Source of the DNA: Candidatus Gottesmanbacteria bacterium
GTDB lineage: Bacteria; Patescibacteriota; Microgenomatia; UBA10105; UBA927
Direction: 5' to 3'
Assembly: GCA_016218255.1 (NCBI GenBank)
Contig: JACREN010000007.1
Coordinates: 1 to 62,971 of the forward strand
DNA: 62,971 nucleotides
Made by a program: the position numbers and the translations under genes. Position 1 is the first letter of the stretch; every line of letters starts with the position of its first letter. Of the stretch, positions 7,256 through 44,632 are shown in pieces. Under the pieces are notes generated by a model. It made no database searches. It saw nothing but the letters and a program-made list of their open reading frames with translations, and was not told where the DNA came from.

Positions 7256-7612
7256 TCACTCATGCACCACGCCAATCACAAGGTAAAGTACCGGCTGAGC
7301 TCCTAAATTTATCATACTATGAAACGATGTACTTGGAATCACAAACGTATCCCCACGGGTAACGGAATATTTTCCATTGTCTATCTTCATTTGCGCGGTC
7401 CCTTCAAGGATAACACATATTTCCGTCATATTTTCATGCCTGTGCAAGCGGAAAGATTTGCCCGGCGGGATCGTGGCCCAGTTCACCATCTGAATTCTTC
7501 CCACTGGAATATCATCTCTCCGAAGGAGAACTTGTTTGAGCACACCCGGATCCCTCGGATCTTCGTGAGAAGCCGGAACTTTTGGGATATCAGCAACGTG
7601 AATAATATTCAT
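7256..7612 (-). CDS. Cupin domain protein
   Basis: HRHENMTE...G and GD...IP...H cupin motifs. Confidence 0.88.
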   Translation of the reverse strand: MNIIHVADIPKVPASHEDPRDPGVLKQVLLRRDDIPVGRIQMVNWATIPPGKSFRLHRHENMTEICVILEGTAQMKIDNGKYSVTRGDTFVIPSTSFHSMINLGAQPVLYLVIGVVHE

Positions 7613-7643: not shown

Positions 7644-8540
7644 ATGTCGACAAAACTGATACTTGATACATCGGCACTTCATAAAGCCCTCACCCGCCAC
7701 GCAGAAATTTCGGAACAGAAACTCAAAAAGCACCATCCCAAAGCAGTATCTATCCTAGAAAAAGCAGGGGTTAAACCGGGAAAAATCCGCGATCACGCGG
7801 CAAAACTCGCTGCCACAAGCGCTATGGCCGCAGCGCTCTTATTTGCCCAACCGGTGGCCCAACGGGTATTTTCTTCCGCATCAGCAAAATACGCATCGCT
7901 CCCAGTTGACCAACTGCAAAAACTGTTTACTCAACAGCTCAACGCCATCCTCCCGGAATCCATGACTCCACTGACAAACGAACAGGAACAAAAAATTAGC
8001 TCTCTGATCAAGGACATGTGGGGAATCACCGCGACCGCTTCCCTACAAAATGAACGCCTCAACCGAAGCTACGGATTTATCGGTGCCGAACAGCACCTGC
8101 CACGTTTCCCTGGTGACAGCATAGACCAACACGGCGAACCGCGGCGCGAAGGCATCACCCCCGGGCTTGGCGCATGGGGATATTTTGCCCCATCCAAAGA
8201 CCAGCTCACCCAAGACCTCATCGAAAAAGAAAAATGGTATGTGGCAGTACAGACGCTCTATCTACCGGACTGGAATACGAGGTTTCGCTACCTGCGGGAT
8301 TGGTATCAGTACCGCAAAGTCTTAGTAGTTAACCCCATCAATGGGAAAACCGTGGTTGCGGACGTTGCCGATGCAGGCCCGGCTGACTGGACCGGCAAGC
8401 ATTTCGGCGGATCGCCCGAAGTCATGGCGTATCTTGGTCTCAACGTGGGCATGCAAAAAGGCCCGGTTATATTACTATTCGTTGACGAATCAAATAACCC
8501 GGTCCCGCTGGGGCCCGTGGAGTATAATGGGAATAAATAA
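7644..8540 (+). CDS. Putative exported protein with C-terminal RlpA/DPBB-like domain
   Basis: KVLVVNPINGKTVVADVADAGP...SPEVMAYLG resembles the RlpA double-psi beta-barrel; hydrophobic segment at about aa 55-70. Confidence 0.6.
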   Translation: MSTKLILDTSALHKALTRHAEISEQKLKKHHPKAVSILEKAGVKPGKIRDHAAKLAATSAMAAALLFAQPVAQRVFSSASAKYASLPVDQLQKLFTQQLNAILPESMTPLTNEQEQKISSLIKDMWGITATASLQNERLNRSYGFIGAEQHLPRFPGDSIDQHGEPRREGITPGLGAWGYFAPSKDQLTQDLIEKEKWYVAVQTLYLPDWNTRFRYLRDWYQYRKVLVVNPINGKTVVADVADAGPADWTGKHFGGSPEVMAYLGLNVGMQKGPVILLFVDESNNPVPLGPVEYNGNK

Positions 8541-40430: not shown

Positions 40431-41831
40431 TTATTTCGTTTTGAAAATAACGGCGATACCCAATTCGGCAAGTTGTTCTGTACTTGCGGCGCTCGGCGCA
40501 TCCATGACTGATGTAGCCCCTCCAGAAGACGCAGGAAACGCCATGACCTCCCGAATGCTTGGTTCACCCAATATCGTCATAATAAGCCTGTCAATTCCCG
40601 GCGCAATCCCCCCATGAGGAGGCACTCCATAGCTAAACGCGGTAAGCATGTGATCAAATTGCGACTTTTGCTCTTCGCTAAAACCGATCAATTCAAATAC
40701 CTTGTTTTGGATTTCAGGCTGATGGATACGGATACTGCCACCGCCCACTTCAAATCCGTTCAAAACCAAATCATGCTGAAGACCGCGTACGCGCAAAGGA
40801 TCCGTATCAAGAAGCGGAATATCGTCAGCATGAGGCGCAGTGAACATATGATGAGAAGGGGCAAATCTCGCCTTGCCAGAACCATAGTAAAAATCATCTT
40901 TGGATTGCTCGGTAAAAAGGGGAAAATCTATAGTCCAAGAAAATGCGAGCTCATTGGGATCATTTGTGTCTTTCCGCAGGTCCGGCTTGTCTGTGCCATA
41001 AGTTGCCATTACTTCTTTATGTGGCAATCGCGGCCACGGAGATTGCGATATATATTTTTGGGGAAATAATTCCGCAACCATTCGCGCAAACATGTCTTCT
41101 GTCAGTTGCATTATGTCTTCTTGAGTCACAAAGGACAACTCCATATCAAGCTGTGTAAATTCTCCGTAGGCCCTATCTTTTCTTGGGTCTTCATCGCGGA
41201 AACAACGCGCAATCTGGAAATACCGCTCCAGTCCCGCAACCATCAATAATTGTTTATATTGTTGTGGCGATTGCGGCAGCGCATAAAAATTACCTTTCTG
41301 AAGCCGTGACGGAACAATAAAGTCGCGTGCCCCTTCTGGTGTCGTTTTGGTGAGGATCGGTGTTTCCACTTCTATAAAATCACGCGCAAGCAAAAAATTC
41401 CGAATAAACGCTGCCGCCCGGCTACGCATACGCAAATTTCTATTCATGCGCGGCCGCCGCAGATCAAGATAGCGGAATTTTGACCGTATTTCCTCGTTAA
41501 TATCATACCCATCGGTATCGATGGGAAACGGCAATTCCCGGGCGTGACTCACGATCGTTAATTTTTTGACTTCAATTTCCACTGTGCCGGTAGGAATTTT
41601 TGGATTCACCATGGACGCCGGACGTGACTTTACCAGTCCCACTACTTCCACCACATCCTCTGCGCCCACCTGCTGTTGGTTTGCAATAACGACCATCTGG
41701 ACAATTCCACTCCTATCGCGCAGGTCTAAAAACGTAATTTTTCCGTGATCGCGCCGGGTATTCACCCAGCCAGCAAGCAACACTTCCTGACCTATTGCAT
41801 CAATTGTTTCTATCGCAAGAGTTCGTTTCAT
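40431..41831 (-). CDS. aspS: Aspartate--tRNA ligase, short GAD-less form, probably non-discriminating
   Basis: RRDHG, LPQSPQQYKQ, FRDED and PPHGGIAPGIDR motifs; start MKRTL downstream of TTGTCA-17-TACAAT. Confidence 0.95.
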   Translation of the reverse strand: MKRTLAIETIDAIGQEVLLAGWVNTRRDHGKITFLDLRDRSGIVQMVVIANQQQVGAEDVVEVVGLVKSRPASMVNPKIPTGTVEIEVKKLTIVSHARELPFPIDTDGYDINEEIRSKFRYLDLRRPRMNRNLRMRSRAAAFIRNFLLARDFIEVETPILTKTTPEGARDFIVPSRLQKGNFYALPQSPQQYKQLLMVAGLERYFQIARCFRDEDPRKDRAYGEFTQLDMELSFVTQEDIMQLTEDMFARMVAELFPQKYISQSPWPRLPHKEVMATYGTDKPDLRKDTNDPNELAFSWTIDFPLFTEQSKDDFYYGSGKARFAPSHHMFTAPHADDIPLLDTDPLRVRGLQHDLVLNGFEVGGGSIRIHQPEIQNKVFELIGFSEEQKSQFDHMLTAFSYGVPPHGGIAPGIDRLIMTILGEPSIREVMAFPASSGGATSVMDAPSAASTEQLAELGIAVIFKTK

Positions 41832-41844
41832 GAGTCTTTCTGCC

Positions 41845-41894
41845 ATTGTACGGTGATTTGCAATTCTTGACAAGGAGATTTTGTCTGTTAAAAT
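41845..41894. promoter_or_regulatory. Back-to-back promoters sharing one -35 (CTTGACAAG)
   Basis: Minus: TTGTCA(41873-41868)-17-TACAAT(41850-41845). Plus: TTGACA(41867-41872)-16-TAAAAT(41889-41894) with extended TG. Confidence 0.75.
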
Positions 41895-41907
41895 ATCTTC
41901 TATACCT

Positions 41908-41985
41908 ATGACAAGCGCTACCTGGCACCTTCGCGTCTTTTTTATTACCCTCCGAAACAAGGGAGGACGTGTGGCGGGAGCATAA
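41908..41985 (+). CDS. Putative 25-aa leader peptide MTSATWHLRVFFITLRNKGGRVAGA
   Basis: First ATG after the plus-strand promoter; spans attenuator segments 1 and 2. Confidence 0.45.
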   Translation: MTSATWHLRVFFITLRNKGGRVAGA

Positions 41986-42041
41986 AAAAAGAAATTATTT
42001 CAAACCCAACACGAACCTCCCAAGGAAAGGGAGGTTTTTTT
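41948..42041 (+). promoter_or_regulatory. Putative transcription attenuator (1:2, 2:3, 3:4 helices)
   Basis: CCTCC/GGAGG (41949-41966); antiterminator GGGAGG-A-CGTGT-GG (41961-41974) with CC-A-ACACG-AA-CCTCCC (42006-42021); terminator AACCTCCC/GGGAGGTT plus T7 (42014-42041). Confidence 0.6.
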
Positions 42042-42057
42042 GATAAAAAAAGAAACT

Positions 42058-42264
42058 ATGACCATAGAATATGATCCAACTGAAACACTGAGAAAAAATT
42101 CCGGAGAAGGAGCCGGGGGGGGTGGAGATGGCCCTATTGGAGAAGACTTATACGAAGGCCCATACAGGGTTCTCCGTGAAGGCGAAGAGGTGGCGCTAGA
42201 AGATGTTTCTCAGAATACAGTCACGCGCGAGCCAATGGTGCCAATCCGTAAATATGGAAAATAA
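42058..42264 (+). CDS. Acidic Gly-rich 68-aa hypothetical protein
   Basis: ATG 17 nt after the terminator; no SD; no family recognised. Confidence 0.5.
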   Translation: MTIEYDPTETLRKNSGEGAGGGGDGPIGEDLYEGPYRVLREGEEVALEDVSQNTVTREPMVPIRKYGK

Positions 42265-42483
42265 ATGAGCGAAGCTTTGCCCGATGCACATTGACAAGTT
42301 AATTTTTGGGTGGAAGAAGAGGATGTCACATCTGACCTGGCGCCTTCCTCTTCCACCCAAATCTTTGGGAGGAAAAATTCAAAAGGAGAAAAGAAAAAAA
42401 TGAACAAAGGACCCCCTAAAAAAATTAAATAATAATACAATCAGAAGGAAATTTGAAAATCCAAAAAACTCAAGAGGACAAAA

Positions 42484-42657
42484 ATGAACACTGGTTACGA
42501 TGTTGACCTGCCGGAAGAAGGAGATGTTTGTTCTTGCTGTGTCGCGCCTGCAGCGGCTAAAATCAGCGGTGTGCCACATTGTGGATTCCACGCTGATCAA
42601 GAATTTGAAGACTGGCGGAAATATTTACCCAGCAAACCCGCACCTGTCGTCGCCTAA
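42484..42657 (+). CDS. 57-aa putative zinc-finger microprotein (missed by the ORF track)
   Basis: MNTGYDVDLPEEGDVCSCCVAPAAAKISGVPHCGFHADQEFEDWRKYLPSKPAPVVA; GAGGA SD upstream; CxxC...CxxH. Confidence 0.65.
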   Translation: MNTGYDVDLPEEGDVCSCCVAPAAAKISGVPHCGFHADQEFEDWRKYLPSKPAPVVA

Positions 42658-42769
42658 ACGCGCTTAGCAAACGAAACACCGTTCGATTATCGCTTTGCGC
42701 GATAGCAACATCTCCACAGAGACCCAGCACCAGCTGTCGCTGGGTCTCTCCCTTTTGGGCATCCAGAGA

Positions 42770-42797
42770 ATTTTTTTGCGAAACTTCGCAAAAAAAT
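42770..42797. terminator. Bidirectional terminator-like palindrome
   Basis: ATTTTTTTGCGA-aact-TCGCAAAAAAAT, 12-bp perfect stem. Confidence 0.65.
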
Positions 42798-42982
42798 GTA
42801 TTTTCTTTCCTCCGATTCTCCCAAAAAAACAACACACCACCTGCCTGCCTATCGCAGCAGTTAATAATATTATTCAGAATATATCGTTAACCGTTGCGCT
42901 TTACAGGCAGGTTGAGAGAAGCAAAACACAAGATCCCCGTATTTTATGGCTCGAGAGCGCCAGACCAATGCGGGGATTTTGG

Positions 42983-44632
42983 TTAGACACGTATATCCTT
43001 TATCTTTAACTGCAATTTGCGGTTTCCGTTCCAGGTATTCATATCAATCGAATATGCAATATCAACCGGCTTATCCGGTGTAAACTTGCCATATAATTCT
43101 CCTAAACCAAAGGCAATTGCGTCAATCGTTAATGACTGAATACGTAATTTAAGGTGTTTTTTATCCTTACCCACAAGACGCACGTCACCAACCACAACCC
43201 CGCGCGTCGCAAACACCGGTTCTGCGTTACCGAATCCGAACGGCTCAAAACCGCGGATCTGTTGCCATAGCGCCTCTGTCGCTGTTTCAAGCGGAATTTC
43301 CAAATCTATACGCAGCAACCGTGTTAGTTTTTCTTCATCCAATTCTTTATCCGCCAGATTCTCGAGTCTATCCTGCAGCGCAGTCAAATGTTTCGTTTCC
43401 ACAGTAAACCCCGCTGCCATCGGATGACCGCCAACATCTATCAAAATATCACTACAGGTTTTGATCGCCTCAACGATGTTAAATCCTGCAACAGACCTGG
43501 CTGATGCTTTTGAGACAACTTCCCCTTTAGATACCACAATAGCCGGTCGGTAATACTCTTCAACCAGCTTACCCGCCACAAGACCAATGACCCCTTGATT
43601 ATATGACTCGTGGGAAAGAAAAATAAGTTTATGCGAATGAATAGAAGGCGAACGGGAAGTAAGGAAGTTTTTTGCATGAAGTGTCGTATCAACGGTAAGC
43701 TGTTGGCGCTCCCGATTGGTCATTCCTAATTTTTGTGCCAACAAATCAGCGCGGTCACGCTGCTTTGTACACAAAAGCCGAAGCGCGTCCAACGCATGTT
43801 CTATCCGCCCCATGGCGTTTAATCGTGGTGCTATCATATGAGAAATGTCATATGTGCCCACAGTCCCCTTCGTTAATCCAGCATCCGCCATGAGCGCTTC
43901 CAGGCCAACCCGTTTCGTTTCGTTTATCGCCGCCAATCCGAACCGCGCTATTGACCGATTCGCGCCCACGAGCGGTACCATATCGGCAATCGTTCCAATA
44001 GCAGCAAGAGAAAGAAGCTCCATGGAGAACGCTACGGGCAACTTATGATTCATAGCACGCAGAAGTTCTTTTGCTAAAAACCAACTTACCCCTGCGCCGC
44101 ACAGAGAAGTCGTGTGAACGACCGTGCAGTCGGGAAGCAATGCAGGCTTGACGTGGTGATCTGTAACAATAACCTCTATTCCTAATGTCTTGGCGTATAC
44201 AACCTTCTCCCTTGCAGTTATTCCGTGGTCGACCGTAATAATAAGGGTCGGATTATAAAGCTCCTTCACCGTGTCTATTCCTTTCACAGATAATCCATAC
44301 CCCTCATCCACCCGATGAGGAATATATGGCATGACGCGAGCACCAAGCTGATTCAGTGTCTCCCACATGACCGCACCGGCAGTAATCCCATCAGCGTCGT
44401 AATCCGAATACACTACGATAGATTCCTTTGTTTCTATTGCTTTTTGGATTCGTTTGATCGCTTTTGCAAGAGACGTTGTTTCAATATTTACGTCACGGGG
44501 GGTAAGTACTGCAGGATCCGGCGGATTAAGAAAACATGAGATATCCTTCTTCCCAATGATTCCTCTGTTTTTTAACAACATCGACACCAGGTCATCAGTT
44601 TTGCCTTTGTGAATAATTTCCCATTTCTTCAT
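42983..44632 (-). CDS. recJ: ssDNA exonuclease RecJ
   Basis: DYDADG, TVDHG, TDHH, TIADMVPL, RLNAMGR and GGHPMAAG motifs. Confidence 0.97.
   Translation of the reverse strand: MKKWEIIHKGKTDDLVSMLLKNRGIIGKKDISCFLNPPDPAVLTPRDVNIETTSLAKAIKRIQKAIETKESIVVYSDYDADGITAGAVMWETLNQLGARVMPYIPHRVDEGYGLSVKGIDTVKELYNPTLIITVDHGITAREKVVYAKTLGIEVIVTDHHVKPALLPDCTVVHTTSLCGAGVSWFLAKELLRAMNHKLPVAFSMELLSLAAIGTIADMVPLVGANRSIARFGLAAINETKRVGLEALMADAGLTKGTVGTYDISHMIAPRLNAMGRIEHALDALRLLCTKQRDRADLLAQKLGMTNRERQQLTVDTTLHAKNFLTSRSPSIHSHKLIFLSHESYNQGVIGLVAGKLVEEYYRPAIVVSKGEVVSKASARSVAGFNIVEAIKTCSDILIDVGGHPMAAGFTVETKHLTALQDRLENLADKELDEEKLTRLLRIDLEIPLETATEALWQQIRGFEPFGFGNAEPVFATRGVVVGDVRLVGKDKKHLKLRIQSLTIDAIAFGLGELYGKFTPDKPVDIAYSIDMNTWNGNRKLQLKIKDIRV

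Follow-up and report, generated by a model that had tools for sequence, protein, structure and literature searches.

Does the spacer between aspS and recJ of a Candidatus Gottesmanbacteria bacterium carry a gene of its own, and if it does, what does this gene encode and how is it read? The question was raised by a stretch of DNA of 62,971 nucleotides (nt) from this organism (assembly GCA_016218255.1, contig JACREN010000007.1, positions 1 to 62,971 of the forward strand), which is called here the window. An earlier reading of the letters alone (the sequence-only reading) had picked out in this spacer a hidden open reading frame (ORF) of 57 amino acids (aa) and had proposed that it encodes a single-zinc microprotein, a possible effector of an attenuated transcript. 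Homology and codon comparisons now indicate that this ORF, located at 42484..42657 on the plus strand, is almost certainly a real protein-coding gene. Its product belongs to a small, unnamed and fast-evolving family, which is found in the aspS-recJ spacer, on the strand opposite to both genes, in at least two related organisms.

Identification of the microprotein gene and its family

The ORF starts with ATG and ends with TAA, and its product shows the motif C16-S-C18-C19, followed by 13 residues (VAPAAAKISGVPH) and by C33-G-F-H36. Upstream of the ATG, nine further codons are open and contain no alternative start codon, which gives a total open frame of 66 aa. The predicted protein is acidic, with an isoelectric point (pI) of 4.55 and a charge of -5.4. 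The ORF with its CSCC-13-CGFH arrangement and the GAGGA in front of it is present as the sequence-only reading described it, although it is hidden only in relation to the ORF cutoff used there: the exact 57-aa sequence is already an unnamed prediction in public protein catalogues. A length of 57 codons says little in itself, because nine ORFs of 54-104 aa, distributed over both strands, are found in this spacer of about 1 kb; it is homology that raises this ORF above chance.

The same reading had claimed that Shine-Dalgarno (SD) sites are scarce, and this holds at the genome scale: a 4-mer SD core at -18..-4 was found in 12.5% of the 841 genome ORFs of at least 150 aa versus 7.6% of random positions, and GAGGA itself in 1.3% versus 1.0%. 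The homologue at locus L070 shows AGGAG 8 nt before its ATG, and an SD-like core is located upstream of all eight listed positional analogues as well as in the window and L070. The structure of the initiation region is not unusual (z 0.6), in contrast to the very stable hairpins on its flanks (z -3.9 to -6.3).

An exhaustive phmmer search of 1.84 billion representative proteins found nine proteins besides the query at E <= 1e-3, the best being P0002 (E 8.6e-14, 56% identity) and P0003 (2.6e-8). P0004, a repeat protein of 1788 aa matched in three short stretches, was dropped as spurious; the eight small homologues have 69-84 aa and E values of 8.6e-14 to 9.7e-4. Matches begin near the N-terminus, in six cases at query residue 1-2 and in P0007 at residue 5. 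A profile search added P0011 as a ninth small homologue and did not relist P0002, with the window protein itself at E 1.7e-22. A word-based search of 5.8 billion proteins or clusters returned only the 57-aa protein itself, and when 40 relatives were searched in six frames with the single sequence, no match went below E 0.03 and the weak ones were located within a conserved gene of about 500 aa. In a DNA search of 25 relatives the ORF was unmatched, the matches being confined to the terminator hairpin and the 3' block.

The whole family comprises 11 sequences including that of the window, ten of which form the alignment A2, and its members are without a name in any source. Invariant positions in A2 are M1, D6, C16, C19, A23, C33, A37 and W44, and near-invariant ones V7, G13, L48 and P49. 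The resulting signature is M-x-[ST]-x-x-D-[VL]-[DE]...G-x-x-C-x(1,2)-C...A...C-x-x-[HCD]-A...W-[RKQ]-x-x-[LV]-[PA], and the window protein shows its start pattern from M1, the invariant Cys, Ala and Trp residues and the W-[RKQ]-x-x-[LV]-[PA] stretch behind the helix. The family is acidic, with a pI below 5 in 9 of the 10 members.

P0005 corresponds to 8001..8219 (+) of L070, a metagenome contig, where it is located between aspS (-) and recJ (-), followed by a gene for a CCA-adding enzyme. This gene arrangement is identical to that of the window. The flanking proteins of the two loci are 66-75% identical and the microproteins 44%. Across 54 aligned codons the two microprotein genes show 17, 18 and 35 differences at codon positions 1, 2 and 3, respectively, and 17 of the 25 identical residues are encoded by different codons; this pattern therefore points to selection on the protein and not on the RNA. 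The sequence-only reading had made its case depend on homologues that keep the frame and the Cys/His spacing: homologues exist, they keep frame, start and Cys spacing, and one of them is syntenic. The position between aspS and recJ, on the opposite strand, was seen for the window and L070, and scans for contigs of the other A2 members (genome contigs with P0005, viral contigs with P0001 and P0003) found none.

Predicted fold and metal-binding site

The AlphaFold2 (AF2) model built on the ten-sequence alignment has a mean predicted local distance difference test (pLDDT) score of 81.9, which rises to 92-93 in the residue blocks 11-40. It shows an irregular knuckle at about C16-C19, two strands (25-27 and 30-32), a helix (34-40) and a short helix (44-47). 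C33 and H36 are placed at the beginning of helix 34-40, within its first turn. The predicted model shows the arrangement of treble-clef zinc fingers, in which two ligands come from a CxxC knuckle and the remaining two from the first helical turn. On this basis the protein probably has a single structural, treble-clef-like Zn(Cys3His) site, formed by the C16/C19 knuckle together with C33 and H36. The single-zinc part of the earlier proposal accordingly agrees with the invariance of C16, C19 and C33, with His or Cys at position 36 in 8 of 10 members and with the confident AF2 model, and zinc binding keeps the status of a prediction.

Neither Pfam, NCBIfam, PHROG nor the PDB contained a significant relative of the microprotein. 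The best sub-threshold library matches were an HNH PHROG (E 0.047), EsV_1_7_cys (0.0095, in one member) and zf-C2HC5 (0.13). Foldseek gave a best E of 2.6 and nothing at or below 1e-3, with LIM, nuclear-receptor, HIT and MYND zinc fingers among the weak top rows, and VIA-align against 48,161 chains reached a best Z of 2.5. In the ESM Atlas, unnamed clusters at 0.92-0.93 are leads only, and a cluster carrying DUF7455 ranked 11th at 0.90. DUF7455 (PF24254) was rejected: it matched one of the ten members at 11.6 bits (E 0.2, cutoff 27 bits), and in the genome of the window it had no match at E <= 1. A ribosomal zinc ribbon of the bL36 type, whose motif is C-x2-C-x12-C-x4-H, was also rejected, with no Pfam or NCBIfam match and a pI of 4.55 versus the basic protein expected.

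The sole sequence match in the PDB was the N-terminal zinc module of a ClpK/ClpG-type AAA+ ATPase (PDB 8p66 chain B), which shares with the window protein C-x-x-C-G-x-P-A-x-V-R-[VL]...L-C-x-x-H followed by a helix. The match is not significant (E = 1, 12.6 bits), its second knuckle was left unaligned by HMMER, and the window protein is free-standing. Similar CxxCG..PA...LCxxC/H modules occur in McsA and in the zinc-binding domain of ClpX. The ClpX-type zinc finger (Pfam zf-C4_ClpX) was not reported at E <= 10 for the ten members, a result in which the filters of HMMER may hide very weak matches.

The closest described type is that of the haloarchaeal micro-proteins with one zinc-finger domain, represented by Brz in Halobacterium salinarum and by the C(P)XCG proteins in Haloferax volcanii (PMC6562870, PMC10716476, PMC11241148, PMC2253796). 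Like these, the window protein stands alone, has at most 70 aa, carries mostly one four-ligand knuckle, is encoded in an intergenic-looking spacer and has a function that cannot be deduced from its sequence. Unlike the C(P)XCG proteins, which are defined by two C(P)XCG motifs in fewer than 70 aa, it is bacterial and shows CSCC and CGFH in place of CPXCG, while its size of 57 aa lies within their limit. Further differences are the acidic core, the conserved N-terminal strand and the WRxxLP motif, and it is unrelated to named families. Judged by motif, the one-knuckle microprotein type is already described in haloarchaea, and the window protein is set apart by lacking CPXCG and any named family.

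Organisation of the aspS-recJ spacer

The spacer is flanked by aspS (40431..~41846, -) and recJ (42983..44632, -), and the microprotein ORF is antisense to both. The region downstream of recJ was compared in 53 related loci; recJ and aspS are often neighbours in the family, separated by 0 to more than 1.3 kb. The features of the spacer are collected in Table 1.

Table 1. Features of the aspS-recJ spacer, in positions of the window.
Feature	Position	Strand	Remarks
Promoter-like site TTGACA-16-TAAAAT	41867..41894	+	11/12 consensus, with TG
25-codon leader ORF (MTSATWHLRVFFITLRNKGGRVAGA)	41908..41985	+	Spans hairpin 1 (41948-41966), stops 30 nt before terminator stem
Terminator-like hairpin CCTCCC...GGGAGG with T run	42013..42043	+	3' arm doubles as SD of next ORF
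74-aa acidic ORF	42040..42264	+	Likely first cargo microprotein; codon score 0.251 (good)
Long stable hairpin between cargo ORFs	42305..42361	+	Free energy -30.2 kcal/mol, z -6.3
SD-like GAGGA	42474..42478	+	5 nt before microprotein ATG
57-aa microprotein gene	42484..42657	+	Predicted metal ligands C16, C19, C33, H36; C18 extra Cys
Hairpin A with small hairpin	42718..42759	+	About 60 nt after stop; z -3.9; kept in 4 loci, some compensatory changes
Hairpin B (TTTTTTTGCGAAACTTCGCAAAAAAA)	42770..42797	+	z -4.8
Long hairpin C	42839..42912	+	z -5.1; different-sequence counterpart in L070, L012, L014
Terminal hairpin D (GATCCCCG...CGGGGATTTT)	42930..42980	+	z -5.2; likely 3' end of plus-strand unit; abuts recJ stop

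A regular expression picked out 17 loci in which a TTGACAAG box precedes, by about 130-175 nt, a CCTCC...GGAGG stem with a T run: the window, L012, L013, L014, L020, L025, L027, L028, L033, L040, L049, L053-L055, L059, L066 and L070. Since the promoter and terminator motifs served to select these loci, every one of them has the terminator by construction. Each of the 17 contains an ORF of 22-33 codons that begins with ATG and ends 15-32 nt ahead of the terminator stem. The leader unit of the relatives shows constant spacing, two CCTCC/GGAGG hairpins and a T run, and an example of its leader peptide is M..H[QK]F[IL]HVL.I...GGRV... The 1.0-Mb assembly contains just two hairpins of this terminator type and a single instance of the full leader motif.

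In single-sequence minimum free energy (MFE) folds, the segment after hairpin 1 pairs either upstream or downstream, while RNAalifold on a MAFFT alignment gave hairpin 1 and the terminator only, with nine pairs. Rfam had nothing at E <= 1 in 41500-43500, leader included, and no match at gathering score in L070, L012 and L014. Together these features make the 41867-42043 element look like a leader-peptide attenuator, with a switch suggested by the MFE folds. In attenuators of the trp, his and erm type, a short leader ORF lies over mutually exclusive hairpins. The locus resembles them in that its leader ORF overlaps the arms of the first hairpin, and in that it is followed by a terminator, made of a stem and a T run, and by SD-led cargo; it differs in that the leader peptide has no run of regulatory codons, that the cargo consists of tiny proteins instead of an enzyme operon or a resistance gene, and that the proposed switch comes from MFE folds only.

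The microprotein ORF is located about 445 nt behind the leader/terminator element on the same strand, and a scan for the sigma-70 consensus, which promoters of the candidate phyla radiation (CPR) may not fit, found no plus-strand promoter between 41895 and 42484. The layout fits the earlier proposal of an effector of the attenuated transcript in these three respects, strand, distance and promoter, while the effector role goes beyond it; since the terminator, the 74-aa ORF and the long hairpin intervene, co-transcription is likewise something that we infer. The 74-aa ORF takes its SD from the 3' arm of the terminator stem. By BLASTP, this ORF is weakly linked to a 39-aa ORF in L047, and its GGGGDG motif also appears in that ORF and in a 119-aa ORF of a genome of the same genus (L013). 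It has no counterpart in L070, and prediction of a complex of the 74-aa protein, the microprotein and Zn gave no verdict (score 0.00). A hairpin similar to the long one between the cargo ORFs is found at the same place in L070 and L012.

Proposed exchange of cargo in the aspS-recJ spacer

ORFs of at least 40 aa with a Cys/His knuckle were found in 8 of 41 spacers (of at least 300 nt) on the strand of the microprotein, versus one on the other strand. Mononucleotide shuffles (200) gave 0.78+-0.87 knuckle ORFs, with a maximum of 4; the related genomes are not independent, and the eight spacers represent six sequence types. Many spacers show SD-led small ORFs downstream of the leader.

In two loci the same slot holds another family, A4 (L012 422-619 (-) and L014 963-1181 (-)), with the motif CxxC...VPxTGRAAxxGLCCKCDRE.NGPQ and nine members in a large database (P0012-P0020). 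Its AF2 model has a pLDDT of 84.3, and three of the nine members show a SHOCT-like Pfam match at E <= 1 (best E 8.6e-4). A4 shares with the window protein the aspS-recJ slot, the strand, the SD, similar hairpins around it, two Cys knuckles and the position of the second pair at the start of a helix. It differs in being basic (pI above 8.3 in 8 of 9 members) with a helical C-terminus, in contrast to the acidic A2. Homology between the two families is unsupported, with an hhalign probability of 1.8-10.6%. The slot is occupied by acidic A2 in the window and L070, by basic A4 in L012 and L014, and by other families elsewhere.

The 3' regions of L070 (8220-8600, A2 cargo) and L014 (600-959 (-), A4 cargo) are 85% identical (z 51.6), while the ORFs in front of them do not align (z 1.2). 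This comparison of sequences suggests that the cargo was replaced within a conserved RNA frame, in a cassette-like manner.

Other SD-led, Cys/His-rich ORFs of 53-75 aa are located in the same spacer of L053/L054 (75 aa), L038/L041 (59 aa), L020, L027, L028 and L044. The spacer ORFs of other genera show the motifs CPKH..CPIC, CAVH..CWKC, CPFH..C..GGNHC and CGAPTLGAKDGLCSWC, and none of them can be aligned to the window protein by BLASTP.

Distribution of the gene

The A2 profile, searched in six frames, found no credible copy in 86 other genomes of the order, where one weak match was obtained (G022, E 0.004); in 400 other genomes of the class, the same G022 match was the only one and was judged spurious, and 400 other genomes of the phylum gave none, the three samples overlapping. 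The G022 match (G022:C27) covers profile positions 30-66 only, contains three stops and overlaps the end of a long ORF that by eye is CTP synthase-like. A match in L072 is inside a 210-aa ORF and was also rejected as spurious. The one genome of the same genus (G001) has no A2 gene, and its spacer contains other ORFs.

Groundwater metagenome runs contain DNA of the locus. In run X1, probably the source sample, another contig of comparable depth agrees with the spacer at its two edges and has 275 other bases in place of the 957 bases of 41976-42932; it therefore represents a co-occurring relative that lacks both cargo ORFs. In run X2, coverage is confined to 41860-42156, with the microprotein ORF outside. 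The microprotein gene is rare, fast-evolving and dispensable. Literature searches, with supplementary files outside their scope, found nothing on the A2 family.

Proposed explanation and alternatives

The explanation that we favour, as somewhat better than an even bet, is that of a real gene for a 57-aa, acidic, one-knuckle microprotein carried as cargo of an attenuated plus-strand transcript. The transcript would start at the TTGACA/TAAAAT promoter at 41867-41894, and RNA polymerase would read through the terminator at 42013-42043 under control of the leader peptide. Since read-through would be required, synthesis of the microprotein would be limited to times of relief of the attenuator; whether its expression does depend on the attenuator we consider evenly balanced. 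As a downstream cargo of this transcript it would be translated from its own SD. Its invariant N-terminal strand and the W44-R-x-Y-L-P49 motif may contact a partner, which the acidic core makes more likely to be a protein than a nucleic acid. More tentatively, and with doubt prevailing, the aspS-recJ spacer could be a dedicated, leader-peptide-attenuated site for small metal-knuckle proteins exchanged as cassettes, with the 57-aa protein as one allele of a hypervariable, stress-triggered effector system; such a system might respond to translation stress or act toward a host cell.

Several observations weigh against the favoured explanation. No RNA run is listed as containing the locus. The codon-usage log-odds of the microprotein ORF is 0.082, an intermediate and ambiguous value on a score trained on 531 long genome ORFs, in which windows of real genes give 0.208+-0.104 in frame and -0.039+-0.105 off frame. 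The homologues are predicted metagenome proteins, so that conservation of the frame is partly selected by the route of discovery. The fourth ligand is variable, position 36 of A2 being His in 7, Cys in 1 and Asp in 2 of the 10 sequences, and two members show CxC instead of CxxC. The terminator, the 74-aa ORF and the stable hairpin separate the promoter from the microprotein ORF. Furthermore, 41976-42932 is replaced in the co-occurring contig, and with no credible copy in the searched relatives, including the genome of the same genus, the gene is therefore dispensable.

Some of these points would fit a chance ORF in a structured non-coding RNA or spacer, conserved as RNA and with an untranslated frame: conserved hairpins of great stability and ORFs of similar length abound in the spacer, the codon score is ambiguous and no RNA run is listed. 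Such a reading is nevertheless extremely unlikely in view of protein matches down to E 8.6e-14 in the library of 1.84 billion, the invariance of the Cys residues, Trp and start, third codon positions that differ about twice as often as first and second ones, and conserved residues that mostly differ in codon; in addition, the start of the ORF shows no unusual fold and Rfam returned nothing at E <= 1. A real microprotein whose Cys/His cluster is not a structural zinc site, being instead a redox CxxC or disulfide switch, a rubredoxin-like iron centre or metal-free, would account for the His, Cys or Asp at the fourth ligand, for CxC in two members and for the extra Cys18 of the window copy, and several predicted zinc-finger microproteins of Haloferax volcanii are reported to bind no zinc (PMC11241148). 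We judge this quite unlikely, as the three Cys residues are invariant at a fixed spacing and the predicted fold is treble-clef-like. Asp is, moreover, an accepted if rare zinc ligand.

Alternatively, the microprotein could bind zinc and be expressed independently of the attenuator, from an own unrecognised promoter or after processing at 42305-42361, with the leader controlling the 74-aa ORF only or nothing downstream. About 445 nt, an ORF and a hairpin of -30 kcal/mol between terminator and microprotein would agree with this, as would L070, which keeps the microprotein without a counterpart of the 74-aa ORF, and a second TTGACAAG box at 42292, given that CPR promoters may deviate from the consensus scanned. 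Set against it, the scan listed no plus-strand promoter in 41895-42484, the 42292 box has no acceptable -10 at 16-18 nt, and the order of leader, hairpin, SD-led ORF and 3' hairpins is kept in the window, L070, L012 and L014, which leaves it unlikely. The ORF could also be one half of a two-gene conflict cassette (an acidic ORF1 and a Cys-rich ORF2), toxin-antitoxin- or immunity-like and swapped between strains. Many spacers contain two SD-led small ORFs in this order, the L070 and L014 3' regions are alike behind ORFs that do not align, and the locus differs by presence or absence within the genus and within the source sample; yet Pfam, NCBIfam and PHROGs (PADLOC was not searched) gave nothing, L070 has no counterpart of ORF1, both window ORFs are acidic, and the flanks hold only aspS, recJ and cca and no mobile-element genes. 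This is very unlikely.

Taken by itself, the gene adds a further uncharacterised microprotein of zinc-finger-like type. Catalogues of small proteins are poor and groundwater bacteria with reduced genomes are uncultivated, which makes a conserved microprotein with a metal signature a concrete target for synthesis and biophysics. Its context adds a single-copy leader/terminator element that recurs in 17 loci picked by motif, conserved RNA hairpins and differing cargo, and if expression confirms the layout, the locus would be a compact model of microprotein regulation and turnover in tiny genomes.

Additional features of the locus

Besides the terminator hairpin, hairpin D is the sole part of the spacer listed with DNA-level matches in relatives (25 relatives). 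The four hairpins behind the ORF are kept in four loci, with compensatory changes in 7 of 42 predicted pairs. The 42718-42980 hairpins could represent either a small RNA of its own or a structured 3' untranslated region.

The aspS ORF as listed starts with TTG at 41960, and its alignment to relatives begins near MAERLMKRT, from which the start is probably ATG 41846 or 41831 and the spacer then about 1.14 kb. The -35 boxes of the two strands overlap on the palindrome CTTGACAAG, with TTGACA at 41867-41872 on the plus strand and TTGTCA of aspS (41873->41868, with TACAAT) on the minus strand, so that the divergent promoters could compete for polymerase. Upstream of aspS, L070 has a divergent T-box leader at 7304-7570 (-), which matches RF00230 over the full model length with 41.4 bits (E 2.3e-7), below the gathering score of 93, and a similar sequence is located in L012 at about 1380-1600. 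The window offers no space for such a leader in front of its aspS (41847-41960), and the search at E <= 1 gave none.

Between the long hairpin and the microprotein gene, a mini-ORF encoding MNKGPPKKIK (42400-42432, +) lies behind a strong AAGGAG. This very short frame, which contains a Pro-Pro motif, may be a second regulatory ORF. At the corresponding position of L070 (about 7931-7942), AGGAGG is followed by ATG-GGA-CCG-TGA.

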